The position numbers and the translations under genes were made by a program. Below the pieces are notes generated by a model, which searched no databases, was not told where the DNA came from, and was given only the letters and a program-made list of their open reading frames with translations. From Nitrospirota bacterium (GTDB lineage: Bacteria; Nitrospirota; Thermodesulfovibrionia; Thermodesulfovibrionales; SM23-35), in contig JBFLZS010000008.1 of assembly GCA_040756135.1 (NCBI GenBank), forward strand, positions 5,021 to 69,020: a stretch of DNA of 64,000 nt. Direction: 5' to 3'. How positions within the stretch are numbered: position 1 is the stretch's first letter; the number at the start of each line of letters is the position of its first letter. Below, piece by piece: positions 13,837-45,321 of this stretch.

Positions 13837-14040
13837 TAAATTAATTATACCAGATTATTATTATCTACCCAAAATAGATAGCGAATTGTGTCAGGTAGCG
13901 TAAATTTTCTGTATAAAATTCTTGAAGTCAATGCACTTGCACAAAGTATTTAGCAGGGCACGTTCAAAAATATGGGCGTAGGGAGGCTTTAGCATCCCAT
14001 CAGCGAATTTATTAAATGGGCGGCTAAAGTCGCCCCTGCT

Positions 14041-14192
14041 ATTTATTAGAATAACTACTAAAGGCATCAAAAGAATTATAGTATCCGCCACTGCTGTCTG
14101 ATAATTATGAACCAGCCCAAAAAACAAACACAAAAAACACAACAATATGTTGTTTCCAGAATTATTCCATTGGAAAATTTTCCTTTCGGATT
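14041..14192 (-). pseudogene. Decayed C-terminal sorting-tag remnant detached from the upstream S8 protease
   Basis: Out of frame with, and after the stop of, the 14193-16442 gene. It reads ...LCLFFGLVHNYQTAVADTIILLMPLVVILI, against GGGACSIGMVHSYQTAVADTIVLITPLLIILIIKRFRKF at 19177-19314. The Gly-rich segment is replaced by T/G-rich low complexity and the basic tail by a repeat. Confidence 0.6.
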
Positions 14193-16442
14193 TTACGGAA
14201 TATAAATGGATACCGTATTACTGGGAGGCGAATCTCCAGATGCATTGTAGGCCTTTACCCGAAAGTAATAAGTAGCTGGGCCTTTGCCTTTACCCATGGT
14301 GTAAGATGTTATATTCTGCCCTACCGTTGCTATTTGCGAAAATAATGTACAGTATCCAATAAATTTTTGTATACACCGCTCTATTTTAAACCCCGTCTCA
14401 TTGTTTGAATTATCTGTCCAATTAAGTTGTAGCCCACCGGTGATCACAGTGAGAGTGAGATTTGAAGGAGCTACAGGTATTCCTTCACTGGTTAAAACGA
14501 TACTATCCAAATAAATCTGCGACTCGCCTGTAGAGTTCTTTACCTTGAAGTAAACAGTCTTGGTCCCATTGCCTGAAGACAGCGTGAATGAAGGGGCTGT
14601 CGAGTAGGTCTGCCAAGAGGCTCGCCTGAAACTTGACGACTCACTCGCCATATAGTGCGTTGGGCTTCCAGTACAAGAGTTATTCAATGTCACGTTCCGG
14701 CTCGCCGTCGAAGAGGCTCCGTTGTTGATTGCAAACGAGGTGACACTAGGAGCTGCCGAAACATGTAACACCAGGTTGCCACCACCGCTGGTGCCATAGT
14801 AGCTGGCAACCTCGATTATTAAAGGCTTTGCCCCAGTCATAGGAACGTTTGTGATCTGTGACTGATAGCCGCCACCAGCGTTGTCATTGCAAGCAATGCG
14901 TATGAGGTCACCAGTACCGGAATCTATATTAAAAACAGCCAGAATGGTATTGTAGTTACTTCCGAAGGTGTCGAGGTTAAGTGATCCATTCGCAGTCGGC
15001 AAATAGTAGAACCACGCTGTATGACCGCCCGTCGACGGAGAGCCAGCACACAGTGTTGGGTCATCCCAAGAGGTGGTATACTCGGTTGTGTCGAGCGAGA
15101 TGGAAGCAGGTAGGGAATTAATAATCGATATACCGGACTGCCAGTCGGGGGTATAAGGCGGTTCTGTCAGGTCGACCCGAGAATACAGTAGGTAGTTCCA
15201 AGAGTTGGAGTCCAGTAGCTGTATGTGTCCAGGCGTAGCATAGGCGTCGATAAGCCAACCAGCTACATACTCAGGAGTATAATTTGGATAACGCTGTAGT
15301 AGCAACGCGGCAACACCAGCGACATGTGGCGCTGCCATAGATGTGCCGCTCAAGGTGTATTTGTCCGTATCGCTTCCATTGTATGCTGAGGTGATCTGGT
15401 TGCCCGGCGCGTAGATGTCGACACAGTATCCATAATTTGAGAATGATGCACGCCAATCATTTTGGTCGGTTGCTCCGACTGTAATTGCTTCGTATACATC
15501 TGCAGGTGATTCGTAACAGGATTTATAGGAACTTGCGTCGTTTCCTGCTGCGACAACATAGGTCACACCATGTGCGATCGATTTCTGCACTGCATCATCA
15601 AGTGAAAGCGAAGAAGGATATACTCCCAAGCTCATATTGGCGACGGCCGGATGGATGTGATTGCTGGTAACCCAGTCAACGCCCCCAATAACCCCAGAGA
15701 TATCCCCGTACCCATAGCAATCCAGAACACGCACTGGTACCACTCTGACATTCTTAGCAACACCATATGTGCTTCCCCCGACTGTACCAGCCACATGTGT
15801 GCCGTGTCCGTTACAATCGTTTGTCCACCGTCCATCATAAATGGTACTGTAGCCCGGATCTACGCGCCCAATAAATTCCATATGTGTCTTCCGAATTCCG
15901 GTATCTATCACATAGACACTTACACCTGTGCCTGTCAGGTTGTAAGTATACTGCCAATCCATAGGAAGATCCCGCCGATCTATGCGGTCTAGACCCCACG
16001 GCGGGGTAACCTGAACAGCTTGGGCCTGAACGTCCTGGGCCTGCATCTCCGGTATCACCTCAAGGCCTACATCCTCGACACGCGGCTCAGGCAGAGAAAC
16101 TATTCGGTCGGCCTCAATGTAAGCAATATGGGGATTTCGTTGTAAGGCCGCCAAGGCTTTAGCGGGAATGGTGGCGGCAAAGCCGCGCAAAGCTGTGTTA
16201 TAGGTAAAATGCAGCTTCCCGCGATGAACCTTGACCACCTCATCTGCGAGGGATTCGATTTCCGGAACAAGAACTTCATCTTTGAACACCACAATATACC
16301 GGTCTGGGATTGCATTCGGCGCATCCATGCCTACAATCGGAACCTCGCCCAGCAGCGTTTCAGCTGGTTCTCCGAAGGTGGTACCAATAGGCAGGGTTAA
16401 TAATACGAGAGCCGTCAGGATAAACGAGTATTTGGTACACAT
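14193..16442 (-). CDS. Secreted S8 serine protease, proteinase-K-like, with I9 propeptide, C-terminal beta domains and an Fn3 domain
   Basis: The likely start is the ATG at 16442, with AAGGAG 7 nt upstream and signal peptide MCTKYSFILTALVLLTLPIGTTFG. I9-type propeptide RYIVVFKD...AYIEADR. Catalytic triad contexts VYVIDTGI, NGHGTHVAGT and GTSMAAPHVAG. Fn3 segment LQLNWTDNSNNETGFKIER. Confidence 0.9.
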   Translation of the reverse strand: MCTKYSFILTALVLLTLPIGTTFGEPAETLLGEVPIVGMDAPNAIPDRYIVVFKDEVLVPEIESLADEVVKVHRGKLHFTYNTALRGFAATIPAKALAALQRNPHIAYIEADRIVSLPEPRVEDVGLEVIPEMQAQDVQAQAVQVTPPWGLDRIDRRDLPMDWQYTYNLTGTGVSVYVIDTGIRKTHMEFIGRVDPGYSTIYDGRWTNDCNGHGTHVAGTVGGSTYGVAKNVRVVPVRVLDCYGYGDISGVIGGVDWVTSNHIHPAVANMSLGVYPSSLSLDDAVQKSIAHGVTYVVAAGNDASSYKSCYESPADVYEAITVGATDQNDWRASFSNYGYCVDIYAPGNQITSAYNGSDTDKYTLSGTSMAAPHVAGVAALLLQRYPNYTPEYVAGWLIDAYATPGHIQLLDSNSWNYLLYSRVDLTEPPYTPDWQSGISIINSLPASISLDTTEYTTSWDDPTLCAGSPSTGGHTAWFYYLPTANGSLNLDTFGSNYNTILAVFNIDSGTGDLIRIACNDNAGGGYQSQITNVPMTGAKPLIIEVASYYGTSGGGNLVLHVSAAPSVTSFAINNGASSTASRNVTLNNSCTGSPTHYMASESSSFRRASWQTYSTAPSFTLSSGNGTKTVYFKVKNSTGESQIYLDSIVLTSEGIPVAPSNLTLTVITGGLQLNWTDNSNNETGFKIERCIQKFIGYCTLFSQIATVGQNITSYTMGKGKGPATYYFRVKAYNASGDSPPSNTVSIYIP

Positions 16443-16830
16443 TGTGAATCTCCTTCTAAGAAGCTTATAAGCTGTTATCAACATAGCAAATCTCATCATA
16501 TGTCTCTTTTTCTTAATACTTTCCATTTCTCCCTCCTACTTAAGTTAAAAATCAAGTTCCTTGCAAGGTTTAAAAAAACCTTATATTTAGCCAATTTCCA
16601 AGCTATATTTCTATTCCAATCTTCCATAGATACCCATGCTTTTACTTTTACAGGCGTGATACTTGATAGTTACAAGTTTTACTTGTTTTGCTTCGCAAGA
16701 TATTACCCTCATCTCCACCTTTACAGGTGAGGAGTTCACACTGAATTTGAAACGGTAAAATAATACATTTTTAAAAACCTAAGACAGCATTTACTGCCAT
16801 AATTTAACAACATCAATCCTGAACTATCAA

Positions 16831-16930
16831 CTGAAAAATTGAAATGTGTTACGGAAAAATTGAAATAGCTGCTCTATACCTAAGTCCCTGAAAAATTGGA
16901 ATTGACAAAATACCCAACATAGCACATATT
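16831..16930 (+). promoter_or_regulatory. Three direct repeats (cTGAAAAATTGrAAT) plus a TTGACA-17-CATATT promoter candidate upstream of the S8 gene at 17014
   Basis: Repeats lie at 16831-16845, 16852-16866 and 16888-16902. The last one overlaps ttgaca at 16902-16907, and catatt is at 16925-16930. Confidence 0.3.
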
Positions 16931-17013: not shown

Positions 17014-19314
17014 ATGTTTAGATATTTATTCTTTTTATTTATCTTATTGAGTCTTTTTTCATGTGGTAGAGACAGTCAGTTTACTAATAGTAATCCAAGC
17101 AGTGTTTATTCAGATAAAAATATTCAAACGGATGGTTCAATCGCAAAGAGGGGGATGGCAGCAAGATATGTTCCTGGAGAAGTTCTGGTTAAATTCAAGA
17201 CAGGAACCTCTGCAAGCAGAGTGCATGTACTTAACAATGCATTAGGTGCAGTTAAGATAAAAGAAATCGAGCATATCGGAGTTCATCGAATAAAACTCCC
17301 TCACAAAATGAGTGTTGAAGATGCTGTTAAATATTACAAGGCGGAACCTGATGTGGAATATGCAGAACCGAACTATATTGTAAAAAAGGCTACCATCCCA
17401 AATGATCCGGATTTTAGTAAGCTTTGGGGACTCAATAATACAGGACAGATAGGAACCACTGATGCTGATATAGATGCGCCAGAGGCATGGGATATAACAA
17501 CAGGTTCAAATGATGTGATTATAGCTGTTATAGATACAGGAGTTGCTTATAATCATCCTGACCTTGCTGAAAATATATGGATTAACACGGAAGAACAGAA
17601 TGGCACCCCGGGGTCTGATGACGATGGGAATGGCTATATTGATGATATCTATGGATGGGACTTTATAGACAATGATGGCTATCCTGAGGATTATGATAGT
17701 CATGGGACTCATGTGTCAGGAACTATTGCTGCAAAGGGCAATAATGAAATAGGTATTGCTGGTGTGATGTGGTTAGCAAAGATAATGCCCATTAGGTTTT
17801 TAGGTGTGAGCGGTTGGGGTGATACAGGCAAAGCCGCAGAGGCAATAGTATACGCTGCAGATAACGGAGCGCGTATTATAAATGCGAGCTGGGGAAGCAG
17901 GGGTTATTCACAGGCCCTTTATGAGGCTATAGAATATGCACAGTCAAAAAATGTCCTTTTTGTTGCAGCGGCAGGCAATGAGGGAAATAACAATGATACT
18001 AATCCGTTCTATCCTGCCAGTTATAATCTCACAAATATTATCTCTGTTGCTGCTACAGATTATAATGATAAACTTGCCTCTTTTTCTAACTACGGGGCAA
18101 ACTCAGTGGATCTGGCGGCACCAGGAGTAGATATCTATAGCTCAATCCCTCTATTTATATATGATCCTCCTATTACAGTTTATAGTGAGAAGTTCGACAG
18201 TGCATCCGGAGAACTACCACTTCTGGGATGGTCCCGTGGAGGGACAAATTCTACATGGGCCGTAACTACAGGTACAGGAATAGACAACACGAACAGCCTT
18301 GAGGACAGTCCCGGAGGAGATTATCTTCCTAACACAAACTCTTGGGCAGGTTATATGACTCCTATTACATCTGTTAAGAATAACCGTTATACACTTTCGT
18401 TTAAATGGAGAGGGCATATTGACCCTACAATTTATGACTATTTAGATATTAATTACTCTCCTGACGGAATAAATTGGGACTGGGCAGACAGGACAAATGG
18501 AAATAATAGTAATTTTACTCAATACATAACCCGTGAAATCACTGCTGCGGCAGATTTTTACAATAGTTTTTATTTTGGTTTTGGTCTGGAATCTGATTCT
18601 ATTAGTAACTATGATGGTGTATACATTGATGATGTAGTCCTTACAAGAGAACCAATAAGTATAAGTGGGTATAATTATGAATCCTATGGGGGTACGTCAA
18701 TGGTTGCACCACATGTATCAGGGGTTGCAGGATTAATCCTTTCCCTGAATCCCGGTCTTTCTTATTCACAGGTCAAGGATATCATTTTAAACACAGTTGA
18801 TACAATTCCATCTCTTTCTGGCATTACCATGACAGGGGGCAGGGTAAATGCCATGAATGCCCTGCAAAATGCACTTCCTCCTACTGCGCCTGGTAGTCTT
18901 TCAGCCTCAGCGATATCAAGCAGCCAGATAGATCTTTCATGGACAGACAACTCCTCTAATGAAACAGGTTTCAAGATAGAAAGAAAAGTAGACGCAGGCG
19001 GGACATACTCCGAAATTGCAACGGTAGGGGCAAATATTACTACCAATAGCGATACAGGTCTTAGTGCCTCAACAACATATTATTACCGTGTAAGTGCGTA
19101 TAACGTTGCCGGAGATTCTTCTTATTCTAACGAGGTAAGTGTAACAACTCCGGAAGAAGGTACGGAAGAAGGTAAAGGCAGTGGGGGAGGGGCTTGTTCT
19201 ATCGGGATGGTTCATAGTTATCAAACAGCAGTGGCAGATACCATAGTTCTCATCACACCTTTATTAATTATTCTAATAATCAAAAGGTTTAGAAAATTCC
19301 AGGATAAGGCATAA
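17014..19314 (+). CDS. S8 subtilase lipoprotein with fervidolysin-type prodomain, jelly-roll-like insertion, Fn3 domain and Cys-containing C-terminal tag
   Basis: Lipobox LLSLFSC. Prodomain GEVLVKFK...VEYAEPNY. Catalytic contexts AVIDTGV, SHGTHVSGT and GGTSMVAPHVSG. Fn3 segment IDLSWTDNSSNETGFKIER. Tail GSGGGACSIGMVHSYQTAVADTIVLITPLLIILIIKRFRKF. Confidence 0.92.
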   Translation: MFRYLFFLFILLSLFSCGRDSQFTNSNPSSVYSDKNIQTDGSIAKRGMAARYVPGEVLVKFKTGTSASRVHVLNNALGAVKIKEIEHIGVHRIKLPHKMSVEDAVKYYKAEPDVEYAEPNYIVKKATIPNDPDFSKLWGLNNTGQIGTTDADIDAPEAWDITTGSNDVIIAVIDTGVAYNHPDLAENIWINTEEQNGTPGSDDDGNGYIDDIYGWDFIDNDGYPEDYDSHGTHVSGTIAAKGNNEIGIAGVMWLAKIMPIRFLGVSGWGDTGKAAEAIVYAADNGARIINASWGSRGYSQALYEAIEYAQSKNVLFVAAAGNEGNNNDTNPFYPASYNLTNIISVAATDYNDKLASFSNYGANSVDLAAPGVDIYSSIPLFIYDPPITVYSEKFDSASGELPLLGWSRGGTNSTWAVTTGTGIDNTNSLEDSPGGDYLPNTNSWAGYMTPITSVKNNRYTLSFKWRGHIDPTIYDYLDINYSPDGINWDWADRTNGNNSNFTQYITREITAAADFYNSFYFGFGLESDSISNYDGVYIDDVVLTREPISISGYNYESYGGTSMVAPHVSGVAGLILSLNPGLSYSQVKDIILNTVDTIPSLSGITMTGGRVNAMNALQNALPPTAPGSLSASAISSSQIDLSWTDNSSNETGFKIERKVDAGGTYSEIATVGANITTNSDTGLSASTTYYYRVSAYNVAGDSSYSNEVSVTTPEEGTEEGKGSGGGACSIGMVHSYQTAVADTIVLITPLLIILIIKRFRKFQDKA
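19177..19314 (+). other. Candidate C-terminal sorting signal (GGGACSIG, hydrophobic helix, KRFRKF)
   Basis: A tripartite architecture shared with 32441-32563 and, in decayed form, 14041-14145. Confidence 0.6.
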
Positions 19315-19338: not shown

Positions 19339-19887
19339 TCATTGAGATGGGTTGTGGACCACATTTGCCAGAAAGTGAAATATAATTCCGGGAAGTATAT
19401 TGTTTGTCTTCATATAAAGCCATCCCATCATAATGGATGGAAAAAAGCTGAGAAGTGATATCCAGTCATCGGCAAAAATAGCCTTTGGCAAGTGTGCAAT
19501 TGAAAACAGCAGGCTCACCAGTAAAACAGCCTTGAAGTTTCTCCCTATTGAATCCTGAAGAAATCCTCTGAAAAAGAACTCCTCTGGCAGAGAGATGATT
19601 AAAAGCTGGAAGATTATACCCCTCACCCATCCCTCTCCCTCAAGGTGAGGGGGGGAGGGCGAAAAGACAATATAGTAGGGCAAAAGTATAACAATAGATA
19701 CGATAAATCCTAAAAAAAAGTCATTTATCGAAAACCATAGTTTTACATTGTGGCCTACGATTATTGGAAACATCAGCATTATAATTGGTAACGAAACGTA
19801 AAAAATATTGTTTGCGGGCTTTATTGAATACAAGAGAAAAGATAAAATGAGAATAACAAAATAACCAGATATAGTCTTTATGTTCAT
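19339..19887 (-). CDS. CPBP-family (CAAX-protease-like) intramembrane glutamic endopeptidase
   Basis: A polytopic membrane protein with all three family motifs: EExxxR (LPEEFFFRGF), FxxxH (FSIAHL) and HxxxN (FHFLAN). A repeat-derived segment SPSPPHLEGEGWVRG precedes motif 1. Confidence 0.85.
   Translation of the reverse strand: MNIKTISGYFVILILSFLLYSIKPANNIFYVSLPIIMLMFPIIVGHNVKLWFSINDFFLGFIVSIVILLPYYIVFSPSPPHLEGEGWVRGIIFQLLIISLPEEFFFRGFLQDSIGRNFKAVLLVSLLFSIAHLPKAIFADDWISLLSFFPSIMMGWLYMKTNNILPGIIFHFLANVVHNPSQ
19620..19662. repeat. Variant G/C-run palindromic element, in-frame in the CPBP gene
   Basis: Sequence ccctcacccatccctctccctcaaggtgagggggggagggcg. Confidence 0.6.
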
Positions 19888-20036
19888 TTATAAATGATTA
19901 AATTAGGCATTTTGTCAATTTATAGTGAACGAATTTTAAAAGTTAAACATTTATAAACTCCTCATGGACACGCGAGACGTCTGTCCTACTGCGGATAAAA
20001 TCACATTTGAACTTATTTTTGTCGTTTATTATAGAT

Positions 20037-20936
20037 TCACAGACTCCCCTTTAAAGGAATCACATAATATCCCGGGGAAATTTTATACCTTTCAAGCTCA
20101 CCGCGAAATAAAGGGTTTTCAATAAAAGATATTCCGGGCATTAATTCCAAATTGAGGTTCATAACAGCATCTTTTACAGCGCCCTTCAACCTCGCATGGA
20201 TATCCTTTCCTTCAAGGGCGATAGAAACAACATTTATCATATTTCCTTTTATGTCTACAGTACCTCTTATGCTATTAAAAAAATTCAGAGGAACATTAAC
20301 CCCTGACAGAATCGCTGGCTCAAGTCTTGAATCTTCAGTAACAAACTCAACATGTCCTGTATCATCTAACATATTAAATCTTCCTGAAACGGTTCCGGTA
20401 CCCTGTATACCGATGAGTTTAAATAAAGGTATCCCATTTATATTAGCTTTGTTAATATCAAGCTCTATCTGCATCTTATTCTTTGTAAGATTCGCGCGCC
20501 CCGAAAAGTTCCCTCCTCCTATACCTCCGTCAAAGGATATATTCAACCATAACATTATAAAACTTAGCGGGCTTATATGGCCATAGATATTATTTAAAGA
20601 GACAAGTTCTTCTCCCGAGCTTTTTAGTGTTAACCTGTCAACAGCCAAATTATAAAATAAGCCTTTTTTAAGTCCTTTAACTTCCAACCCGAGCTTATCA
20701 CTATTAATAGAATCCTCTATGATGGATTGTATTGAGGCATTAGGAAATACTATCCATATCCCATAGAAAAGAACCGGAATGGCAGCAAGAGCGATAAGGA
20801 TCTTTTTGCTCGAAAATCCCTCTTCCCTTCCTGACAAATCCCCCCATCCCCCCTTTGCTAAAGGGGGGCGAGGGGGGATTACTAAAGGGCAGTTAGAGGG
20901 ATTACTTCTATTATTTTTTGTATTGCAACGGGGCAT
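20037..20936 (-). CDS. gspN: Type II secretion system protein GspN (assigned by position; start uncertain)
   Basis: It is the last gene of the gspC-N order and has a single N-terminal TM helix (ILIALAAIPVLFYGIWIVF). The ORF-track N-terminus runs through a family-A repeat, so the true start is probably downstream of 20837. Confidence 0.55.
   Translation of the reverse strand: MPRCNTKNNRSNPSNCPLVIPPRPPLAKGGWGDLSGREEGFSSKKILIALAAIPVLFYGIWIVFPNASIQSIIEDSINSDKLGLEVKGLKKGLFYNLAVDRLTLKSSGEELVSLNNIYGHISPLSFIMLWLNISFDGGIGGGNFSGRANLTKNKMQIELDINKANINGIPLFKLIGIQGTGTVSGRFNMLDDTGHVEFVTEDSRLEPAILSGVNVPLNFFNSIRGTVDIKGNMINVVSIALEGKDIHARLKGAVKDAVMNLNLELMPGISFIENPLFRGELERYKISPGYYVIPLKGSL
20837..20880. repeat. 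Family-A palindromic element in the gspN 5' region (IPPRPPLAKGGWGDL)
   Basis: Sequence aatccccccatcccccctttgctaaaggggggcgaggggggatt. Confidence 0.9.
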
Positions 20937-20943
20937 TATTGCT

Positions 20944-21450
20944 TCACTTTGATTTCAAAAAAGAAAGGGTCAGGGTAATATTCAAAAGTTCCGGGTTTTC
21001 AAAAGATTTTTTTATAGCAGCCTTTCTAATGGTAAGTGACATTGGTGCATTCTCGATTCTATAGAAAATATTCATCATTTCATTCATGTTAACTTTTTCT
21101 ATCTGAAGATCAGCCTCTTCTTCAAATCCGTCCTTAATCTCTCTCCTGCCTGTAGATTTGACTGTTTTTATTTTATCCTTTAATCCGATGGGTAAAAAAA
21201 CCTCATCTATAGCCTGAACAACACCCTGCACATTTGATAGATTTTTTTTTCCTTCCACAGCATCAATTCTTTGTTTGAGAGATAAAAACTCGCCCTTAAG
21301 CATCAGCATCTCTTTTCGCTGTTCTTTAAGTATTTTTAATTCTCTTCTTTCAGATGAAAGAAGATTCATTCCAAGGGCGACAATAATAATGAAACCTGTC
21401 ATCGCTAATAAAACATAGATAAATCTTTTATCCTTTAATAATTCCCTCAA
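20944..21450 (-). CDS. gspM: Type II secretion system protein GspM
   Basis: 168 aa with an N-terminal TM helix (FIYVLLAMTGFIIIVALGMNLL), then a coiled coil and a small periplasmic domain. It lies between gspL and gspN. Confidence 0.65.
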   Translation of the reverse strand: MRELLKDKRFIYVLLAMTGFIIIVALGMNLLSSERRELKILKEQRKEMLMLKGEFLSLKQRIDAVEGKKNLSNVQGVVQAIDEVFLPIGLKDKIKTVKSTGRREIKDGFEEEADLQIEKVNMNEMMNIFYRIENAPMSLTIRKAAIKKSFENPELLNITLTLSFLKSK

Positions 21451-21467
21451 GCCCTTTTCTCCTTCTA

Positions 21468-21552
21468 AACGCAGATTATCGCAGATTATTTACAGATGTT
21501 CACAGATGCATCTGTGGTAATCTGCATCTTTTCATCCGTGTTCATCTGTGTT
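21468..21552. repeat. Tandem-heptamer hairpin module (gcagatta / cagatg units) at the gspL-gspM junction
   Basis: gcagattatcgcagattatttacagatgttcacagatg|catctgtggtaatctgc...catccgtgttcatctgtg. The centre cacagatgcatctgtg is a perfect palindrome. Confidence 0.75.
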
Positions 21553-22606
21553 CCACTTCCTTCGCTGTTATCGCAAACAACATTTTGCCCTGTGTAGATG
21601 CCTTTGAATCAGATATATTTACATCATCAAAGAGACGTTCGAGCTTAACCTTTACCCGTTGAATATCACTCAAAGACGATGCCTCGCCTTTCAGGGTCAG
21701 ATTTCCTCTATCTGCTGTTATTTCATTAAAAATAACACCCTGTCTATCAATCTGAGAAAGATTAAGAAGCAGGTTAAGCGGGTTAACACCAATAAAAAAC
21801 TCCTCTCTGTTTTTTAATTCCTTCATATGGGATTTAAGCTGATAAAGCTCATTTGTTATATTTTTTTCTCCGGGAAAGATCCCTTGATATACCTTTCGCA
21901 TATCACTCTTAAAAGATGCTATCTCCTGCCTTGCAGATACAATTTTTAACAATAAGTCAGATGCAAGAACAATCGCAAGCAATATCGCAAGTACTGCTGT
22001 TACTTTCAGGGATTTCCTGGTTTTTTCAATACCTCGAGTATATGAAAACTCATCTCTTCTTAGATTTATAGTAGGCGCTATTATCTCTTCAATCGCCAGT
22101 GGTATCCTGTCTTTATCCTCTAAAGAAGGTGCAAGAAGTCTCGCTAAGTTAAAATCCTTAAGTACGTTTTTAAGTTCTAAGGAAGTTATAAACTCAGGAT
22201 CTATGTTGTATGATTTTAATCTTTCAAGAATCCTGCTGATAATTGTTTTCTCAATATATACAGCAAGTACCTGATATTTATCGTCAGATTTACCAACGAC
22301 AATATTATCGAAAACCATTTTTTCTACCCCCCCAAATATCACCCCATCGAGTTCGAATGGAAGTATCTCCCTTATCCTATCCTTATCAGAAAATGGCAAA
22401 TCAATGACCCTGAAATTAAGACTGCTTATAGGTAAACTCAAACAGGCATTCTCTATATCCTTTGTTAAATCAATAGAGAAGTCATACCCATCACGCATGG
22501 GATAACTTTTGCTATCCTTTAATTCGAATCTGCCATGCCTGACCTCGAATATGTAAGTCTCTATTTCCCCTTCTTTTATATCAATAAAAATAGATCTGCT
22601 CATCAA
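21542..22606 (-). CDS. gspL: Type II secretion system protein GspL
   Basis: 354 aa: a cytoplasmic actin-like N-domain, a single TM helix (VTAVLAILLAIVLASDLLL) and a periplasmic C-domain. Its start overlaps the gspK stop. Confidence 0.65.
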   Translation of the reverse strand: MMSRSIFIDIKEGEIETYIFEVRHGRFELKDSKSYPMRDGYDFSIDLTKDIENACLSLPISSLNFRVIDLPFSDKDRIREILPFELDGVIFGGVEKMVFDNIVVGKSDDKYQVLAVYIEKTIISRILERLKSYNIDPEFITSLELKNVLKDFNLARLLAPSLEDKDRIPLAIEEIIAPTINLRRDEFSYTRGIEKTRKSLKVTAVLAILLAIVLASDLLLKIVSARQEIASFKSDMRKVYQGIFPGEKNITNELYQLKSHMKELKNREEFFIGVNPLNLLLNLSQIDRQGVIFNEITADRGNLTLKGEASSLSDIQRVKVKLERLFDDVNISDSKASTQGKMLFAITAKEVEHR

Positions 22607-23505
22607 TATTCCTTCCAGTATTCAATCCTGTTATATGATGTATTAAGAACTGTCTCGATTATCCTTTTAACACCACCAGAGTCAGCGGTGGATTTTATGT
22701 AAAAATTCTTCCCCTCAACTGTTATCTTACCCATGAGTGACTGACCTATAGTTGTCTCAAACCCTGCAACTTTAAAAATTTGCTCCACTTTCTCAAAAGG
22801 CGTAACCTTCCTGTAATCAATCACCCTTTGCGCAAGCCCTTCTGTTATATTATCCGAAAGACACCTGAGAACAGGTTTTTCAGCTCCATTAATATTAATT
22901 TGTGGCGATCTCCAATCTCCGTAGGTGGTTATGTATGGCAGTAATTTATCATAATCCTTCCTGCTTATTCCATTTATCAAAAGGATCTCATCAACACTGA
23001 CAAGACGCGAATTTTTTGCGCCCACCTCGGAATCAGTTAGTCTTGACTCGCTATTCGTGTCAATCCAGTCTACTATTCTATCTGCGATCTTCTCATCTAA
23101 TGAAAGAATTTTCAAAAGTCTTTTGAATGAATTATAAGGACTATTCATATCACTTTCATTAATTATCTCATTCTCGGGGACAATAGAATTGATGTTAAAC
23201 TTAGAATTTTCATCTTCTATCCTTACCAATATCGTCCCATTAAAATCTTCAAAGGGATTCTCTACGGGAAGATCTATAGAACCCGGATATGAATAATTAG
23301 ATTTATTTAGCAGGTCTGATAAAAACCTTGCTGATACATTTATACCTGATCTTGCCATTATAGAAAGTCGTTGAGAATCCCGCCAGTTATAAAGATCGCT
23401 TGTACCGGTATAGACCCCATATGAAAATTCCACCACCATAGCAGTAATCAGAACAAGGGCCAACAGGGTTATAACTAATGCTATACCTTTTTGATTATTA
23501 AACAT
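22603..23505 (-). CDS. gspK: Type II secretion system minor pseudopilin GspK
   Basis: QKGIALVITLLALVLITAMVVEF gives a GspK-type N-terminus without the Glu5. The size and position are typical. Confidence 0.8.
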   Translation of the reverse strand: MFNNQKGIALVITLLALVLITAMVVEFSYGVYTGTSDLYNWRDSQRLSIMARSGINVSARFLSDLLNKSNYSYPGSIDLPVENPFEDFNGTILVRIEDENSKFNINSIVPENEIINESDMNSPYNSFKRLLKILSLDEKIADRIVDWIDTNSESRLTDSEVGAKNSRLVSVDEILLINGISRKDYDKLLPYITTYGDWRSPQININGAEKPVLRCLSDNITEGLAQRVIDYRKVTPFEKVEQIFKVAGFETTIGQSLMGKITVEGKNFYIKSTADSGGVKRIIETVLNTSYNRIEYWKEY

Positions 23506-23562
23506 CTCACCCGAAATTCCTTTTTATTAAGGTTCGGATAATAACACATGCAATGATTGAAA

Positions 23563-23635
23563 AATCCCTCCTAACCTCCCTTTGCCAAAGGGAGGTATTA
23601 CCCCTCTTTGGAAAAGAGGGGATAGGGGAGATTTT
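23563..23635. repeat. Family-B double-hairpin element, gspJ-gspK intergenic
   Basis: aaaatccctcctaacctccctttgccaaagggaggtattacccctctttggaaaagaggggataggggagatttt. The reverse-complement copy is at 24754-24827. Confidence 0.85.
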
Positions 23636-23664
23636 ACAAATATAATTTTGATCACAACTTTGCA

Positions 23665-24402
23665 TTAAATCATCTTCCCCACCCTCGGTCTTGACACATC
23701 AAAAAGGTCAACCTTTCTTCCTTTTATTATCATGGACAGACAGATCCTGATCTCACCGGGCATGCCCTTGGTTATGTCAGTATCCCACGTCTTCACCCAT
23801 CTGTCGTTGTATTTCGCTTCAATAGTAAACTCTTCAATATCCTCAATTATATCAACCCCTTCGGTTTCATCTGATAATCCCCCCAGCCCCCCTTTACTAA
23901 AGGGGGGTGAGGGGGGATTATCTTTATTAGCATAAGGGGATTCCACCTTCTTAAAGAGATTTAATTTCCCATCTTTTTCTTCTATGTAGTATGAAATCAT
24001 GGAAAGGCCGGGGCGCAAAGTTGAAAAGGTTGTAAAGGTAAGCTTCGTTGCCTGCTTACCGTAGATATCCCTGTCTTCAATCTTTAAAAATGTATTACTA
24101 TCATCCTTATAGAAAGAAGCCGAATCCAGTTCACGCCTTAAGATGTCAATCGCCTTTCTATATTCCTGAAGTTTCAACAGAGATTCGTCCATGCCTTCAA
24201 TCGCCCTATGGCTTAAGAAAAATGTGCTGTAGATTGCAGCAAGGACTATAGAAAGTATTGCAACAGCGATGAGTATCTCAATAAGGGTGAAACCACCCTG
24301 CCTCCCTTTACTAATAATCCCTCTCAATACCCCTTTATCAAATCCCCCCTTGCCCCCCTTTTCTAAAGGGGGGATGGGGGGATTACTTAAAAACAAACTC
24401 AT
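23665..24402 (-). CDS. gspJ: Type II secretion system minor pseudopilin GspJ (start uncertain; possible TTG at 24327)
   Basis: Prepilin-type site RQGG|FTLIEILIAVAILSIVLAAIYS. Family-A repeats lie in the leader or 5' region and internally (NPPSPPFSKGGLGGL). Confidence 0.8.
   Translation of the reverse strand: MSLFLSNPPIPPLEKGGKGGFDKGVLRGIISKGRQGGFTLIEILIAVAILSIVLAAIYSTFFLSHRAIEGMDESLLKLQEYRKAIDILRRELDSASFYKDDSNTFLKIEDRDIYGKQATKLTFTTFSTLRPGLSMISYYIEEKDGKLNLFKKVESPYANKDNPPSPPFSKGGLGGLSDETEGVDIIEDIEEFTIEAKYNDRWVKTWDTDITKGMPGEIRICLSMIIKGRKVDLFDVSRPRVGKMI
23876..23919. repeat. Family-A palindromic element, in-frame inside gspJ
   Basis: Sequence aatccccccagcccccctttactaaaggggggtgaggggggatt. Confidence 0.9.
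24341..24383. repeat. Family-A palindromic element at the gspI 3' end / gspJ leader
   Basis: Sequence aatccccccttgccccccttttctaaaggggggatggggggatt. Confidence 0.9.
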
Positions 24403-24868
24403 TAAGTTTTACCTCTTCTTTACCGGCCCTGACAGTAACAATAATCTCTGATATGCCAACATATGGTGACTCCTTAACAAAGGTCTCATAAGTATACCCT
24501 TCATAGGGTGTGTCAAATACCCCTTTTTCATTATCACGGCTTTTTTCTGCATCTGCAATCTTATTCTTTGCAAGAAGGGTTGCAATTGTGAGGGTCTCAT
24601 GCCTTTCGATGATACCTAAATGATAGTTCAGGGTATATATAAGGGTTACAAGGAGACCTCCAACAATGGCAAGGGCAAGGAGGACCTCAAGAAGGGTAAA
24701 GCCTGCTTTATAAGAATTATTAAGGGTCTTAAATTTGAATTGAAATTGTTTAAAAAATCTCCCCTTGCCCCTCTTTTCCAAAGAGGGGAATCCCTCCCTT
24801 TGGCAAAGGGAGGTTAGGAGGGATTTTACAATTAATGCCGTTATGATTATGAGACTATTAATAAACAT
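24383..24868 (-). CDS. gspI: Type II secretion system minor pseudopilin GspI
   Basis: Prepilin-type site YKAG|FTLLEVLLALAIVGGLLVTLIY. The long leader contains family-B repeat codons (SLCQREGFPSLEKRGKGRF). Confidence 0.8.
   Translation of the reverse strand: MFINSLIIITALIVKSLLTSLCQREGFPSLEKRGKGRFFKQFQFKFKTLNNSYKAGFTLLEVLLALAIVGGLLVTLIYTLNYHLGIIERHETLTIATLLAKNKIADAEKSRDNEKGVFDTPYEGYTYETFVKESPYVGISEIIVTVRAGKEEVKLNEFVFK
24754..24827. repeat. Family-B double-hairpin element inside the gspI leader-coding region
   Basis: aaaatctccccttgcccctcttttccaaagaggggaatccctccctttggcaaagggaggttaggagggatttt. Confidence 0.85.
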
Positions 24869-24908
24869 TAAAAATTTAAATTTCTGGATTTCCTTAATTT
24901 TGAATCTT

Positions 24909-25460
24909 TCATTTTGAATTTTGAGTTATCTTTATTCTCCCACTCAGATGGTTGAGGGTAATTGTCATCCCTTTATCTCCTTTACCCATATGAACGCTGA
25001 TATTCTCTTGAATCCCAAGGGGGCCAAAAAAAAGTGTAATCTCGCCATCTGAGACCTTTCCTTTTGATTGCGTGGTTACACCGGTCATATCATCGAACCT
25101 TTTCGTCTTTTCCCCATCCGGTCCTACCCAGTAGACGGTACCTTCATCAAGGTCAAATTTCATCGAAAAGGTCTCCTTCCTTGATACAGCGCTGTCGTTC
25201 ATATACCTCAGTATTGAGGCAATCTCTCTTGACTCAGATTTGAGCTTACTCTCGCCAAAACCAGCAAAAGACGGAAAGATAAGAGCCATAACAATAGAGA
25301 TGATGAACATAACAACGATTAGTTCTAACAATGTGAAGCCCATTTCAGGTTGGTTTTTGCTTGGAACTTGGAACTTGGAACTTGGAACTTTTTTATTGCA
25401 TATCCCAGTTCTTGATATCCGCATTCTTGCCATCTCCACCTTCTTTTCCATCAGCGCCAT
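24909..25460 (-). CDS. gspH: Type II secretion system minor pseudopilin GspH (start uncertain)
   Basis: Prepilin-type site PEMG|[24 protein letters not shown]. The candidate ATG starts all overlap the gspG 3' end. The leader includes a (ggaactt)x4 tandem repeat. Confidence 0.75.
25347..25392. repeat. Tandem heptamer (ttggaac)x4 in the gspH leader-coding region
   Basis: ttggaacttggaacttggaacttggaactt at 25361-25390. Confidence 0.85.
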
Positions 25461-25824
25461 AACTTATTAAATCGAAATCACCGTAAAGGCCTGGCGATAT
25501 ATATATATAGGGATTGCCCCATGGGTCAAGCGGAATTTTCTTTTGCTCAAGGTATCCACCTTCCCTGTATTTCTGTGGTATCTGGCCTGCGGTTGGTTTC
25601 TCTATAAGTGATATAAGTCCCTGCTCGGTGTCTGGATAAAAGCCGTTGTCGAGCTTAAAGAGCTTGAGTGCCGTCTCAAAATTTTTTATCTGGACCTTTG
25701 CCTCTGCAATGCGTGCATCATCAGTCCGGCCTATTATCTTTGGTGCAACAATAGCTGCCAGGATGCTGAGTATAAATACAACCACAATTATCTCAAGAAG
25801 GGTAAAACCTTTATTATTAGTCAT
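25393..25824 (-). CDS. gspG: Type II secretion system major pseudopilin GspG
   Basis: MTNNKG|[23 protein letters not shown]...DPWGNPYIY...GADGKEGG. This is canonical GspG. Confidence 0.93.
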
Positions 25825-25840
25825 TTATTCCTCCCATTCT

Positions 25841-25938
25841 ATTCCAAGATTCATGATTCACGATGCAGGATACATGATGCATGATTCGTGTATTTTATTT
25901 ACATGTATCTTGTATCCGTATCTTGCATCCTGTTTCCT
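25841..25938. repeat. Tandem-heptamer block module upstream of gspG
   Basis: A block (catgatt/catgatg) followed by a block (gtatctt/gcatcct). Confidence 0.7.
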
Positions 25939-25945
25939 GACTAAT

Positions 25946-26185
25946 TAGAGTCTGTCCATAAAGTCGTATTTTGTCATTGTCCGGCTTGACCGGACAATCC
26001 AGAACATATTGAAAACACTGGATTCCCCGATCAAGTCGGGGAATGACTAATTGTATAAGTCATAAAGTCAGTTTTATTGTCATTCCTGCGGAGGCAGGAA
26101 TCCAGAACCTTTTGAAAATACTGGATTCCGGCTTAAGGACTGCCGGAATGACAGATAGTAAACATCAGTTTATACATAGACACTA
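25946..26185. repeat. MITE-like nested-hairpin element inside the gsp operon (gspF-gspG spacer)
   Basis: Imperfect terminal inverted repeats tagagtctgtccataaagt ... cagtttatacatagacacta enclose four family-C hairpins. The element ends 1 nt from the gspF stop. Confidence 0.8.
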
Positions 26186-26186
26186 A

Positions 26187-27362
26187 TCATTTTATCAACT
26201 GGTTCAACTGGAATATCGGCAAAAGAACTGCAAGGACTATAAATCCGACAATAAGCCCCATAAAAAGAATCATTGCAGGTTCAAGAAAAGAAAGGGCCTT
26301 CTGTACCTTTCTCGAGAATTCTTCCTCATACGAATCTGCAGCTTTCTTCAGCACCTCAATTAGTCTCCCACTCTTCTCTCCAGTTGCGATTAATTGAAGA
26401 AGCACAGGCGGGAATCCCTCAAGGGATGCAGAAAGCCCTGCCCCTTCTGCAACCCGTTTGCCACCTTCAATCACCTTTGTCTCAAGTATCTTATTCCCGA
26501 TAGACTTTGCAGCAAGCTCAAGCGACCTCAAAACAGGAAGACCCCCTCCGAGCAAAGAACTAAATGTCCTCGTAAATCGTCCAAAATAAAGGCTCTGTAA
26601 TATATTTCCGGGCAAACGTAAAACAAGCCTATCAATAAATAATCTTTTCCTTTCACTCAGTCTTCTAAAACCGAATACACCTGCCAGAATTATTCCCAAT
26701 AAAAGCCACCAGTAGTTTTGAAAAATATCACTAATGGTTATAAGCACAATAGTGATAAAAGGCAGGGCGCTCTCTGTATCCTTAAATATCTTTGTTATCT
26801 TCGGTATAACAAAGATAAACAAAAAGGAGAGAACAACAAAACCAATACAGATCATAAAAATAGGATAAACCATTGAGGTTCTTACCTTTGATCTGAGGTT
26901 AGCCTGTGCCTCCAAAAAATCTGACAGACGTCTGAGAATATCATCAAGATTTCCGCCTGCCTCTCCTGCAGCAACCATATTTACATAAAACTCAGGGAAA
27001 ACCTTTTCATAATCCTCAAGCGCCTTTGAAAAGCTCGACCCTCCGGCGACCCTTTCCTTTATGTTCACTAACATGTTTTTCCAGAAACCCTTATTTTCCT
27101 CAGAGATTGAACTCAGCGCATCCATCAGGGTCACACCTGATGAAAGTAAGGTTGATAACTGCCTTGTTATTGATGGGAGAAGGGATATATCAGACCTGTG
27201 GAATAGACTGAAACCCCTTTTATAAACAGCTTCCTTTACATTTTTTGGGTAAAGACCTGAGTCTTTAAGCCTTAAGACTGCATCCTTGAGGCTGTTTGCC
27301 TCAAGGGTCCCTGCTACCTCCGAGCCGTCTGACCTGTATCCTCTATACTGAAATATCGGCAT
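26187..27362 (-). CDS. gspF: Type II secretion system inner-membrane platform protein GspF
   Basis: A duplicated GspF/PilC domain architecture with three TM segments. It lies between gspE and gspG. Confidence 0.9.
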   Translation of the reverse strand: MPIFQYRGYRSDGSEVAGTLEANSLKDAVLRLKDSGLYPKNVKEAVYKRGFSLFHRSDISLLPSITRQLSTLLSSGVTLMDALSSISEENKGFWKNMLVNIKERVAGGSSFSKALEDYEKVFPEFYVNMVAAGEAGGNLDDILRRLSDFLEAQANLRSKVRTSMVYPIFMICIGFVVLSFLFIFVIPKITKIFKDTESALPFITIVLITISDIFQNYWWLLLGIILAGVFGFRRLSERKRLFIDRLVLRLPGNILQSLYFGRFTRTFSSLLGGGLPVLRSLELAAKSIGNKILETKVIEGGKRVAEGAGLSASLEGFPPVLLQLIATGEKSGRLIEVLKKAADSYEEEFSRKVQKALSFLEPAMILFMGLIVGFIVLAVLLPIFQLNQLIK

Positions 27363-27386
27363 ATATTATAAATACCTAAAATATAA

Positions 27387-27430
27387 ATCCCCCCTCACCC
27401 CCCTTTACTAAAGGGGGGAGTGGGGGGATT
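27387..27430. repeat. Family-A palindromic element, gspE-gspF intergenic
   Basis: Sequence aatcccccctcacccccctttactaaaggggggagtggggggatt. Confidence 0.9.
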
Positions 27431-27436
27431 TTTCAT

Positions 27437-29005: not shown

Positions 29006-29059
29006 ATCTATGAAAACATTAATGATGATTTATTGTCACAAACGAACATGAAAATCAGT

Positions 29060-29104
29060 AATCCCCCCATGCCCCCCTTTAGTAAAGGGGGGTTAGAGGG
29101 GATT
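29060..29104. repeat. Family-A palindromic element, gspD-gspE intergenic
   Basis: Sequence aatccccccatgcccccctttagtaaaggggggttagaggggatt. Confidence 0.9.
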
Positions 29105-29110
29105 TGTCCT

Positions 29111-31405: not shown

Positions 31406-31418
31406 GTTTACCCATATC

Positions 31419-32294
31419 TTACTTTATCTGGTAAGTCATTGTCATCTTTGATCCACCCCTTATTAAATCAATCTGAACCCTTTCCAGACCTTTCAAGGCT
31501 GTAAATGCCTGAAGGGCCCTCTCAGGGTTAGATATCTCATATTCATTAATCCTGAGAAGTACGTCGCCGTTCTGGAGACCGAGGCTGTGGTAGATACCGC
31601 CTGGTTTAACCTCACTCAAAATAAAGCCTTCCTGTTTGCCATTAATAATATTAGGTTTAAGCCTTGCATCAGTCATTATCTGGTTTGGATTAGAGATCGC
31701 CTGCTGAACCCTTCCCTGATCAACTATATAAGTGCCCCTTCCCACCTTCTGGGCAAATGTAGAGGTAAAAGAGTGTTCCCCCGAAGCAGGTCTTTTGATC
31801 TCTTTTACCTTTACATCTTCAAGGAGAATCTCTGTTGTCTTTTCCCCCTGCCTGAGCAGTACCTTATCTTTTTTAACGCTATAAAGTTTCCCGAGGCCAA
31901 ACACAGAGTCTCCGACCTTAAAGACATCCTGCATCCCCGATCTGTCCATAAAAACCCCGTAGCTCATTTTTTTAGGCCCCACTACTGTCCCGATAAGTTC
32001 AATATCTATCTTTTGTGCTTTATCATTCATCGAAGCGGTTAATAGCCTTATCTCTTCTCCGGAGAAGCCAAAAGGGTTATTCTTGAGTATCGAAGAATAC
32101 TCTGTAAGTTGCATTTTTTGCCGGCTTGCGCCAACATTTTTTGATACGGCTATCTCTCTCTTCAGGGTTTTCTCTTTATAAAAATAGTTAGAGATTATAT
32201 CTCGTATAAGGAAAAGGGTTGAAAGAATAAGAAATATGCCTATTAAGATGTTTAGATAAAAGATGTTTCTCTCTGTGAAAAGGCCTGATTTCAA
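31419..32294 (-). CDS. gspC: Type II secretion system protein GspC (TM helix plus PDZ domain)
   Basis: N-terminal TM helix IFYLNILIGIFLILSTLFLI and a C-terminal PDZ-like segment GFILSEVKPGGIYHSLGLQNGDVLLRINEYEISNPERALQAF. It lies directly upstream of gspD. Confidence 0.8.
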   Translation of the reverse strand: MKSGLFTERNIFYLNILIGIFLILSTLFLIRDIISNYFYKEKTLKREIAVSKNVGASRQKMQLTEYSSILKNNPFGFSGEEIRLLTASMNDKAQKIDIELIGTVVGPKKMSYGVFMDRSGMQDVFKVGDSVFGLGKLYSVKKDKVLLRQGEKTTEILLEDVKVKEIKRPASGEHSFTSTFAQKVGRGTYIVDQGRVQQAISNPNQIMTDARLKPNIINGKQEGFILSEVKPGGIYHSLGLQNGDVLLRINEYEISNPERALQAFTALKGLERVQIDLIRGGSKMTMTYQIK

Positions 32295-32440: not shown

Positions 32441-32563
32441 TTATCTCCTTCGCCTCATTAATGCTATAACAACCAAAGGTATCATCATCACTGCAAGGTC
32501 AGCGATTGCTGTTGGCGTATTTTGCCTCGGGCCTATGGAACAACTTCCTCCGCCGCCACTATG
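32441..32563 (-). other. Candidate C-terminal sorting signal (GGGGSCSIG, hydrophobic helix, RRRR)
   Basis: The same tripartite layout as 19177-19314. Confidence 0.6.
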
Positions 32564-44582: not shown

Positions 44583-44597
44583 CCGAAAATTACCATT

Positions 44598-44676
44598 CTG
44601 ACAGGCGAGACGCCTGTCCTACTAATATCGAGGTTATTACCACCAACAGTGGTAGGACAGCCGTCTCGGCTGTCCC
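44598..44676. repeat. Family-D hairpin pair (gacaggcgagacgcctgtcctac type), pilO-pilP intergenic
   Basis: ctgacaggcgagacgcctgtcctac ... gtaggacagccgtctcggctgtccc. A single related hairpin lies at 19966-19989. Confidence 0.7.
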
Positions 44677-44715
44677 ATGTTCTATTTCTATTCTCCTTTG
44701 TACAGCATGAATGTT

Positions 44716-45312: not shown

Positions 45313-45321
45313 ATCAGACCC

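Follow-up and report, generated by a model that had tools for sequence, protein, structure and literature searches.

A CPBP-family protease encoded beside tagged subtilases and a type II secretion operon in a Nitrospirota bacterium is a candidate myxosortase-type sorting enzyme

A stretch of 64,000 nucleotides from an uncultured Nitrospirota bacterium of the order Thermodesulfovibrionales (GenBank assembly GCA_040756135.1, contig JBFLZS010000008.1, positions 5,021 to 69,020 of the forward strand; hereafter the window, numbered from its first letter) encodes, at 19339..19887 on the minus strand, a glutamic intramembrane protease of the CPBP/Rce1-like family, which lies between the gene for a subtilase with a Cys-containing C-terminal tag and the operon for a type II secretion system (T2SS). 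We propose that this myxosortase (Mrt)-like protein, of 182 residues from an ATG start, is probably a sorting enzyme, that is, a myxosortase-type endopeptidase that would cleave the Cys tag of a few lipoprotein subtilases; the proposal is one of comparative genomics. It draws on the placement of the protein among protease families, with controls, on the adjacency of protease and tag genes as seen both from the protease and from the tag, on a linkage that persists through rearrangements and on a similar pairing in sister clades. A first-pass annotation of the window had put the protein forward as a candidate sorting enzyme, and the same lines of evidence, together with Mrt proteins as the best-matching NCBIfam families, favour that candidacy. 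The annotation had also stated, correctly, that Cys-containing tags were linked in silico to CPBP proteases and that dependence on the T2SS had been noted (Haft, 2023; 10.1101/2023.06.07.544157).

The match of the protein to the Pfam model PF02517 (Rce1-like; E 1.5e-19; 70.5 bits) lies so far above the gathering score of 22.4 that it is not due to chance. The three CPBP signatures, EExxxR, FxxxH and HxxxN/D, are all found, as motif 1, PEEFFFRG, on transmembrane (TM) helix 4 (E102, E103 and R107; residues 101-108; 19564..19587), motif 2, FSIAHL (H132; residues 128-133; 19489..19506), and motif 3, FHFLAN (H171 and N175; residues 170-175; 19363..19380; all on the minus strand), and these six residues show no variation in an alignment of 33 CPBP homologues. 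From what is established for Rce1 and MmRce1, we take the glutamates of motif 1 to be catalytic. The GenBank call for the gene (P0001) begins at Met39 and gives a product of 144 residues; since M1, Y9, S16, P34 and M37, all within the first 38 residues, are invariant across the 33 homologues, the 182-residue reading is correct and the GenBank start is too late. An AlphaFold2 model built from the family alignment (predicted local distance difference test, pLDDT, 83) has 7-8 helices, is confident outside the loop between TM3 and TM4, and has the catalytic motifs on helices 87-112, 118-130 and 165-178; searches of the PDB by sequence and with Foldseek gave no match. Reading frame, motif coordinates and Pfam match agree with the initial description of a protein of 182 residues with all three CPBP motifs.

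Among CPBP proteins, the closest families are those of the Mrt proteases. Against NCBIfam (release June 2026, with the curated family cutoffs), the five best matches are all Mrt models, MrtS, Mrt_core, MrtP, MrtC and MrtJ (E 1e-18 to 1e-11). On Mrt_core (NF040914) the window protein scores 65.3 bits, compared with 63.2 for an MrtJ annotated by the Prokaryotic Genome Annotation Pipeline (PGAP) and 22-41 for four generic CPBPs from plasmids; a score so near that of a true MrtJ places it with the non-myxococcal Mrt enzymes, formally below the cutoff. By sequence it is Mrt-like and lies outside every defined Mrt subfamily; membership of MrtJ or of MrtS was considered and rejected, both cutoffs having been missed (see below). 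A genome-wide scan found at least 226 genomic CPBP relatives. Full-length relatives at 52-71% identity come from Thermodesulfovibrionales only, followed by other Nitrospirota at 38-45%, then by Dadabacteria and Thermodesulfobacteriota, and then by Myxococcota; one Myxococcota relative passes Mrt_core (113 bits against 100) and another relative reaches 99.3. A rough neighbour-joining tree (129 columns) gives bootstraps of 95% for the subclade of the window protein (A), 76% for a second Nitrospirota subclade, 79% for all Nitrospirota and 59% for Nitrospirota with Dadabacteria, the neighbouring clades being Dadabacteria and Myxococcota CPBPs. Comparison with immunity-type CPBPs had been proposed at first pass as a phylogenetic check; the closest families are Mrt and not MroQ or immunity-type proteins. 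For this reason, and because no bacteriocin genes lie nearby among the window ORFs scanned, we rejected a bacteriocin-immunity CPBP.

Two lipoprotein subtilases in the window carry the tag and are the putative clients. Client 1 (17014..19314, plus strand) has a lipobox (LFSC), a fervidolysin-like propeptide, an S8 peptidase domain and an fn3 domain (Pfam), and ends in a sorting tag (19177..19311, plus strand; Cys codon at 19195-19197) of the form GSGGGA-C-SIG-x6-TAVAD-TM(P)-KRFRK; its tail, GSGGGACSIGMVHSYQTAVADTIVLITPLLIILIIKRFRKFQDKA, divides into GSGGGA, C, SIG, MVHSYQ, TAVAD, the helix TIVLITPLLIILII and a basic end that begins KRFRK. Client 2 (32441..34396, minus strand), directly upstream of gspC, has a lipobox (LASC), propeptide, S8 and fn3 domains, and the tag GGGGS-C-SIG-PRQNTP-TAIAD-LAVMMIPLVVIALM-RRRR (32444..32557, minus strand), with a Pro in the TM helix. 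The two are paralogues of one architecture, one at each end of the T2SS block, and the position of client 2 upstream of gspC recurs in 25 metagenomic loci. Lipoprotein signal peptides start both proteins (17014-17070, plus strand, and 34340-34396, minus strand) and their relatives; the tagged subtilases have a Cys at each end that could bear a lipid, the N-terminal one on a removable propeptide.

The first-pass annotation had described one tagged subtilase; the tag of client 1 stands, and the count does not, as the window has a second tagged subtilase, and the tag of a third has decayed. This third, untagged subtilase (14193..16526, minus strand; I9 inhibitor, S8 and fn3) has downstream of it an out-of-frame fossil of tag-coding DNA (14029..14118, minus strand) that reads GLVHNYQTAVADTIILLMPLVVILI, is without the Cys motif and corresponds to the helix part of the tag; over 76 nt it repeats the tag-coding DNA of client 1 in inverted orientation, with 83% complementarity. 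This suggests a recent duplication followed by loss of the tag, or else an assembly frameshift, and the position of the fossil after the stop codon of the third subtilase indicates that the tag can be lost as a unit. The gene after the untagged subtilase codes for a PrcB_C-domain protein (13345-13836, minus strand); the window subtilases match the model for the dentilisin PrtP, and the pairing recalls the PrcB-PrtP complex of Treponema dentilisin. Neither the PrcB_C gene nor the untagged subtilase is at this position in any relative examined.

The invariant positions of the tag were taken from tags found through their CPBP neighbours, and hence are free of tag-pattern bias. In these tags the Gly just before the Cys, the Cys, the Thr at +10 and the Pro at +21 are invariant and the Asp at +14 is nearly so, and the consensus is a Gly-rich linker, C-[SA]-[IVL]-[GA], about six residues, T-A-x-A-D, a TM helix with the invariant Pro, and an Arg/Lys cluster. 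The C-S/A-I/V/L-G/A core reads like a CaaX box, an observation of our own that is meant as an analogy. Three Nitrospirota tails, two from the window and one from a distant relative (L032), were compared with the NCBIfam models for MYXO-CTERM (TIGR03901), JDVT-CTERM (NF033191), Synerg-CTERM (TIGR04564), GlyGly-CTERM and PEP-CTERM, and none matched at E<=10; the positive controls gave 39 bits for a JDVT tag and 12-17 bits on MYXO-CTERM for tags of the myxobacterial type.

Linkage of protease, tag and T2SS recurs in related loci, which were viewed with flanks of 10 kb or less. Among 21 Thermodesulfovibrionales loci with enough flank, 18 have the order aroC (chorismate synthase, minus), CPBP (plus), subtilase orthologue (minus) and gspN...gspE (minus), and the tag was found on 17 of these 18 CPBP-adjacent subtilases; in the remaining three (L016, L017 and L030) the subtilase is missing and the CPBP gene converges directly on gspN. 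Seen from the tag, the picture is similar. Metagenome contigs were scanned with a DNA pattern for GGG-C-x-[IVL]-[GA]-x6-T-A-x2-D-x6-P, which holds no CPBP information, and 109 of the 121 matches proved to be genuine C-terminal tags, with helix, basic cluster and stop codon. Downstream flank of at least 700 nt was available for 97 of these tags; CPBP comes next in 56 of them (33 convergent and 23 co-directional) and gspC in 25, and hence one or the other in 81 of the 97.

In the window, the stop codon of the CPBP gene (19339-19341) and that of the S8 gene of client 1 (19312-19314) converge with 24 nt between them, and the CPBP gene lies 149 nt downstream of gspN, on the same strand, as the last minus-strand gene of the block. 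Convergence on the 3' end of the tagged gene had been noted at first pass, and the coordinates agree. The annotation had also read the CPBP gene as the last co-directional gene after gspN, which is true of the window and does not hold as a conserved trait: in 25 of 25 related loci the gsp operon ends with the subtilase gene while the CPBP gene lies on the other strand, and the closest relative (L110; CPBP 78% identical) has this usual order. The subtilase and CPBP pair is thus inverted in the window, which makes the CPBP gene look like the last gsp gene, and its membership of the operon is not conserved. The third element of the initial description, that cargo, candidate sortase and T2SS are all adjacent and that the tag has a different signature, is borne out by the locus map and by the failure of the tag models.

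The pairing of CPBP and tag is kept through several independent rearrangements, which argues for a functional coupling and not for mere inherited synteny. The co-directional cases involve CPBPs of a second lineage (B), 37-46% identical to the window protein, and have the protease between two tagged subtilases on one strand; at one such locus (L135), with the order subtilase, CPBP, subtilase, one of the subtilases has an immunoglobulin (Ig)-like domain, and not fn3, before the tag. A transposase or other gap separates the genes at three loci (L007, L015 and L102), with the linkage kept; in L032 the CPBP gene lies between a tagged Ig-domain protein and gspC-gspD, and L034 has another arrangement. 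Beyond Nitrospirota, at 31-46% identity, CPBPs adjoin or are near unrelated GGGC-tagged proteins (L053, L057, L060, L061, L063, L067, L071 and L075), with tails of the form GGGC[AS][IVLM][AGS]...TM...RR, in hosts that include Dadabacteria, an unclassified metagenome-assembled genome (MAG; L071) and a myxobacterium (L075). The window protein thus belongs to the CPBP fold family, has intact active-site motifs and has Mrt proteins as its closest families, and its linkage to tag and T2SS resists rearrangement.

The neighbours of the CPBP genes in several Dadabacteria and Thermodesulfobacteriota MAGs (L053, L057, L060, L061, L063 and L048) end in GGGC-A-I-[AS]...NLxLV...RxR, which has the look of a further family of Cys tags that no model covers, on varied cargos, an S8 peptidase among them. 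Searches for diverse cargos of the window tag returned little. A profile of 17 tags run against a protein database gave two fragments, with poly-Gly words dominating, and a lengthened tag alignment without the Gly run gave two fragments from 247 candidates. In a search of a representative library, multi-fn3 proteins dominated, the profile having absorbed the end of fn3 from two fragments; the same search gave about 11 C-terminal ends of fn3 plus tag, which are consistent with subtilases and uninformative.

Several observations weigh against a sorting role. The window protein stays below every Mrt cutoff, that is, Mrt_core (65.3 bits against 100), MrtJ (NF033192; 44.8 against 75), MrtS (NF040589; 68.4 against 130), MrtX (NF040593; 43 against 180), MrtC (NF040594; 52.6 against 195), MrtP (NF040674; 64.8 against 250) and MrtZ (NF040915; 32.7 against 325). 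The deep nodes of the tree are not resolved (47-59% bootstrap), and its relatives were picked through motif patterns, a sampling bias. Neither CPBP nor gspC is the next gene for 16 of the 97 tagged genes, aroC comes straight after the tagged gene at one locus (L101), and two distant Nitrospirota relatives (L035 and L036) have no tag or T2SS within 10 kb. Assignment was possible for 100 tagged proteins, and every one of these is a homologue of the two tagged window subtilases. The seventh of the attributes listed by Haft, that unrelated proteins share the tag, is therefore not seen, and the domain before the tag, fn3 or Ig-like, is all that varies; the tail could be a terminus conserved within a single protein family, as opposed to a portable signal. 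Finally, the tight synteny comes mostly from one order, and part of it may reflect inheritance and not selection.

The restriction of the tag to subtilase homologues (100 of 100) and the origin of the most conserved arrangement in a single order are what one would expect if the tail were a permanent TM anchor of one subtilase family and the adjacency of CPBP an inherited Thermodesulfovibrionales synteny of no mechanistic meaning. We hold this to be distinctly unlikely. The pairing is found in at least four gene orders or orientations and with CPBP lineages only 37-46% identical, it has survived the inversion in the window, and in other phyla unrelated cargos bear related Cys tags beside related CPBPs; moreover, the domain before the tag differs between clients (Ig-like in L135), the tag of a paralogous subtilase has decayed as a separable module would, and a plain anchor has no need of a Gly-rich linker, an invariant Cys or invariant polar and Pro positions in its helix. 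A different possibility, also unlikely in our view, is that the CPBP protein is tied to the T2SS and the subtilases in another capacity (quality control, regulation or an immunity-like self-protection) and that the tag is cut by a rhomboid or rhombosortase acting on the poly-Gly run, or by an enzyme like signal peptidase. The Gly run does open the tag, as in GlyGly-CTERM signals, CPBPs beside bacteriocin genes have been proposed as immunity factors, and the genome was viewed over 64 kb, so that a rhombosortase could be encoded elsewhere; yet the invariant Cys, T+10 and P+21 and the near-invariant D+14 suit a Cys-dependent CPBP better than a rhomboid, GlyGly-CTERM and every other tag model fail to match, the closest families are Mrt proteases and not MroQ or immunity-type CPBPs, and the window open reading frames (ORFs) scanned include neither bacteriocin genes nor a rhomboid. 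The three loci that keep CPBP beside gspN though the adjacent subtilase is missing (L016, L017 and L030) also speak for another capacity, but there the upstream client position falls outside the flank and a client may exist.

It is very improbable that the CPBP copy of this genome in particular is inactive, disabled by a repeat insertion and by the inversion of the subtilase and CPBP pair out of its usual context. Such a reading would account for the insert at 19630-19659, for the GenBank call shortened to 144 residues and for the decayed tag close by in a rearranged locus. The insert is, however, in frame and in a variable loop where six relatives carry one of a similar kind, the catalytic residues and the conserved N-terminus are all intact, and the AlphaFold2 model is confident outside the loop.

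A sorting enzyme remains, in our estimate, the probable reading, and a dedicated one. Seven of the eight attributes given by Haft for tag systems are found here: C-terminal location, more than one copy per genome, a signature motif, a hydrophobic helix, a basic cluster, N-terminal signal peptides, and homologues with no signal or with a different one, such as the third subtilase here and, elsewhere, S8 peptidases with JDVT-CTERM or Dadabacteria-type tags. As unrelated proteins do not share the tag, the clause of Haft for 'dedicated systems' applies, and enzyme and target are indeed encoded regularly side by side. Since the clients found are only subtilases, the system would be dedicated in the manner of JDVT-CTERM and MrtJ, and not one of many clients like that of MrtX. 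There is also a genetic association with the T2SS, as a complete gspC-N operon has the clients and the protease at its flanks both in the window and in relatives.

On this reading of the CPBP protein as a sorting endopeptidase, the subtilases would cross the inner membrane by Sec, be lipidated at the N-terminal lipobox and stay tethered by the C-terminal helix, as their sequences suggest. The tag Cys would be modified, probably lipidated, by some other enzyme, by analogy with CAAX/Rce1 processing and the MYXO-CTERM model. The CPBP protein would then recognise the Cys motif together with the Thr, Asp and Pro positions in or near the helix and cut just distal to the Cys, removing helix and basic tail, a step that family membership and gene linkage point to. 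The adjacent T2SS may carry the folded enzyme to the cell surface, given the linkage and the T2SS dependence of MYXO-CTERM and GlyGly-CTERM proteins. Autocatalytic loss of the propeptide, with its N-terminal lipid, would leave the C-terminal anchor alone to hold the mature protease on the cell.

The T2SS operon (20037..32294, minus strand, as are all its genes) has the order gspC-D-E-F-G-(H/I-like)-J-K-L-M-N, with gspC at 31419..32294, gspD at 29111..31405, gspE at 27437..29005, gspF at 26187..27362, gspG at 25393..25824, pseudopilins at 24909..25460 and 24383..24868, a gspJ-like gene at 23665..24402, gspK at 22603..23505 and gspL at 21542..22606. The ORF in the gspM position (20944..21450) is named from that position, with no family match, and gspN (20037..20936) matches TIGR04411 with 81.6 bits against a cutoff of 50.

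The secretin encoded by gspD carries a C-terminal domain of about 80 residues (680-762; 29120..29368, minus strand; Pfam Fervidolysin_NPro-like, E 4e-15) with homology to the clients' N-terminal propeptide. Its identity to the client 1 propeptide is 43% (E 2e-17) and reaches as far as the EYAEPNYI-K junction, and a propeptide-like domain is found in 12 of 12 related loci in which the 3' end of gspD is complete and not in the GspD of the distant Nitrospirota relative L032; a literature search for a secretin with a subtilase prodomain found no description. We entertain, as a speculative and rather doubtful possibility, that the locus is a self-contained module for subtilase surface display and latency, with a new Cys signal, its own Mrt-type protease and a T2SS secretin that bears a copy of the inhibitory propeptide, so that the channel would dock the doubly lipid-anchored proteases, hold them inactive or release them. 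If true, the secretin would have a built-in receptor or inhibitor domain specific for its substrates, and should the GspD domain dock or inhibit the subtilases, the sorting enzyme by itself would understate how unusual the locus is.

The inverted subtilase and CPBP segment is bracketed by an 18-nt inverted repeat, with a left copy at 16900..16917 (plus strand; AATTGACAAAATRCCYAA) and a right copy at 19903..19920 (minus strand), 16-33 nt upstream of the CPBP start, and three direct 16-nt repeats, ACTGAAAAATTGAAAT, lie just upstream of client 1 (16830-16902). The 18-nt and 16-nt repeats may be a recombination scar or regulatory sites. The 18-nt repeat was considered as a promoter shared by the CPBP gene and the subtilase and rejected, as the implied -10 box and transcription start would hit the CPBP start codon; it is more simply a scar or a substrate of the inversion. 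A promoter scan gave consensus-level sites only, among them TTTAAA-16-TATAAT at 20055-20028, within the end of gspN, and a terminator scan found none between gspN and CPBP and none between the convergent stops, from which no conclusion on operon structure was drawn.

The insert in the CPBP gene is a degenerate copy, in frame, of a palindromic C6/G6 repeat (19630..19659, minus strand); it encodes SPSPPHLEGEGW in the TM3-TM4 loop (residues 76-86), and a similar insert at the same loop in six of 32 CPBP relatives indicates that it is tolerated. The repeat, which is dispersed across this genome, is about 40 nt long and has the form CCCCCC..CCCCCCTTT....AAAGGGGGG..GGGGGG, occurs at 12 or more sites in the window (1654-1692, 12375-12415, 13004-13042, 19630-19659, 20837-20880, 23880-23917, 24346-24380, 27388-27427, 29065-29092, 31322-31359, 43889-43923 and 59681-59715). 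Many copies are in frame within genes (aroC, twice, CPBP, gspN and the gspJ-like gene), and both orientations translate to PPxPP[LF]xKGGxGG; it resembles a miniature element that genes can harbour within their coding sequence.

Directly upstream of client 2, the window encodes an untagged protein of 1357 residues with five HYDIN/VesB-like Ig domains (34601-38674, minus strand), a homologue of which, in L032, bears a variant Cys tag beside CPBP. An untagged Big_1 protein of 627 residues (38818-40701, minus strand) is encoded in the same place upstream of client 2. The T2SS region is adjoined by a type IV pilus cluster, pilMNOPQ (41686-46919, minus strand), whose secretin (41686..44061, minus strand), with AMIN and STN domains, is second to and distinct from GspD.

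Much of this logic has precedent: systems of this kind were predicted in 2023, MrtX was proven in 2025, MrtJ and its clients form dedicated adjacent pairs, MrtS is associated with the T2SS, and an mrtJ lies beside an S8 client in Sulfurovum (see below). The novelty lies in the subfamily of the protease, the signature of the tag, the lineage of the host, a clientele restricted to lipoprotein subtilases and the physical union of clients, protease and T2SS in one locus; a literature search for a Cys tag and CPBP system in Nitrospirota found no description. If real, the system would be the clearest purely genomic case for a link between Cys tag, CPBP and T2SS, conserved across many uncultured Thermodesulfovibrionales, with clients, candidate sortase and secretion machine in a compact cassette of about 15 kb; it would bear on the reach of this logic and extend the mechanism to a new bacterial group. 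The NCBIfam models miss both tag and protease, so that the genes receive no annotation beyond 'CPBP family' and 'S8 family peptidase', which new hidden Markov models would mend. A lipobox on a removable propeptide, combined with a C-terminal Cys tag, suggests why such a protease would need a C-terminal anchor, and the two-ended arrangement of Cys residues bears on which enzyme modifies the tag Cys.

Among the known systems close to this one is MrtJ/JDVT-CTERM (NF033192/NF033191). MrtJ is likewise a small CPBP protein with little beyond the core, dedicated to a client or clients encoded next to it (it adjoins its single client in 16 of 17 cases), and the JDVT-CTERM tag, too, combines a stretch rich in Gly with one invariant Cys, an Asp that is conserved, a Pro within or close to the helix, and a tail of basic residues. 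On a plasmid of Sulfurovum mangrovi (NZ_CP087125; L209, 354-3423), an S8 peptidase gene has an annotated mrtJ directly downstream of it. The peptidase gene is broken into three ORFs, the last with a JDVT-CTERM tag (39 bits) at its end, which gives an independent example of an Mrt protease with a subtilase client. The window system differs from MrtJ in several respects. Its protein scores 44.8 against the cutoff of 75 and NF033191 misses its tag, in which Asp is at +14 and Pro at +21, whereas JDVT-CTERM shows an almost invariant Asp-Pro pair some nine residues past the Cys; the host belongs to Nitrospirota and not to Pseudomonadota or Campylobacterota; the gene is embedded at a T2SS operon; and the protein, at 182 residues, has three extra N-terminal helices. 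MrtS/Synerg-CTERM (NF040589, TIGR04564) gives the best-scoring model (68 bits, under the cutoff of 130) and shares the combination of Cys tag, CPBP and a lineage-specific T2SS. There, the link to the T2SS comes from phylogenetic profiling and no spacer separates the Cys from the helix, whereas here the genes are physically adjacent, beyond co-occurrence alone, and a spacer of about 13 residues is conserved; unlike the Synergistota T2SS subclass, the window T2SS is of the GspN-Leptospira type (TIGR04411), and its GspL scores 21 bits on NF041617.

MrtX/MYXO-CTERM of Myxococcus xanthus is the sole Mrt system in which cleavage has been shown experimentally (Guo, Haft and Wall, 2025; PMC11980579). 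It shares with the window system the superfamily, a tripartite tag with an invariant Cys, and the proposed logic of Sec export, Cys modification, cleavage and display through the T2SS. As a housekeeping enzyme, however, MrtX serves more than 30 unrelated clients and its gene never lies beside theirs, whereas the clients here are few, adjacent and subtilases; the window protein scores 43 against a cutoff of 180, and the MYXO-CTERM model misses the tag. The rhombosortase/GlyGly-CTERM system (VesB of Vibrio cholerae) also concerns a secreted serine protease whose C-terminal tripartite signal is cut by an intramembrane protease, with export by the T2SS and retention at the surface, but its enzyme is a rhomboid serine protease and not a glutamic CPBP, it has no Cys requirement, and the GlyGly-CTERM model has no match here. 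Lastly, the type II CAAX proteases Rce1 and MmRce1 share PF02517 and the motifs EExxxR, FxxxH and HxxxN, and the residues after the tag Cys are CaaX-like; in the window proteins that motif is not at the extreme C-terminus, and a spacer, a helix and a tail of basic residues come after it.

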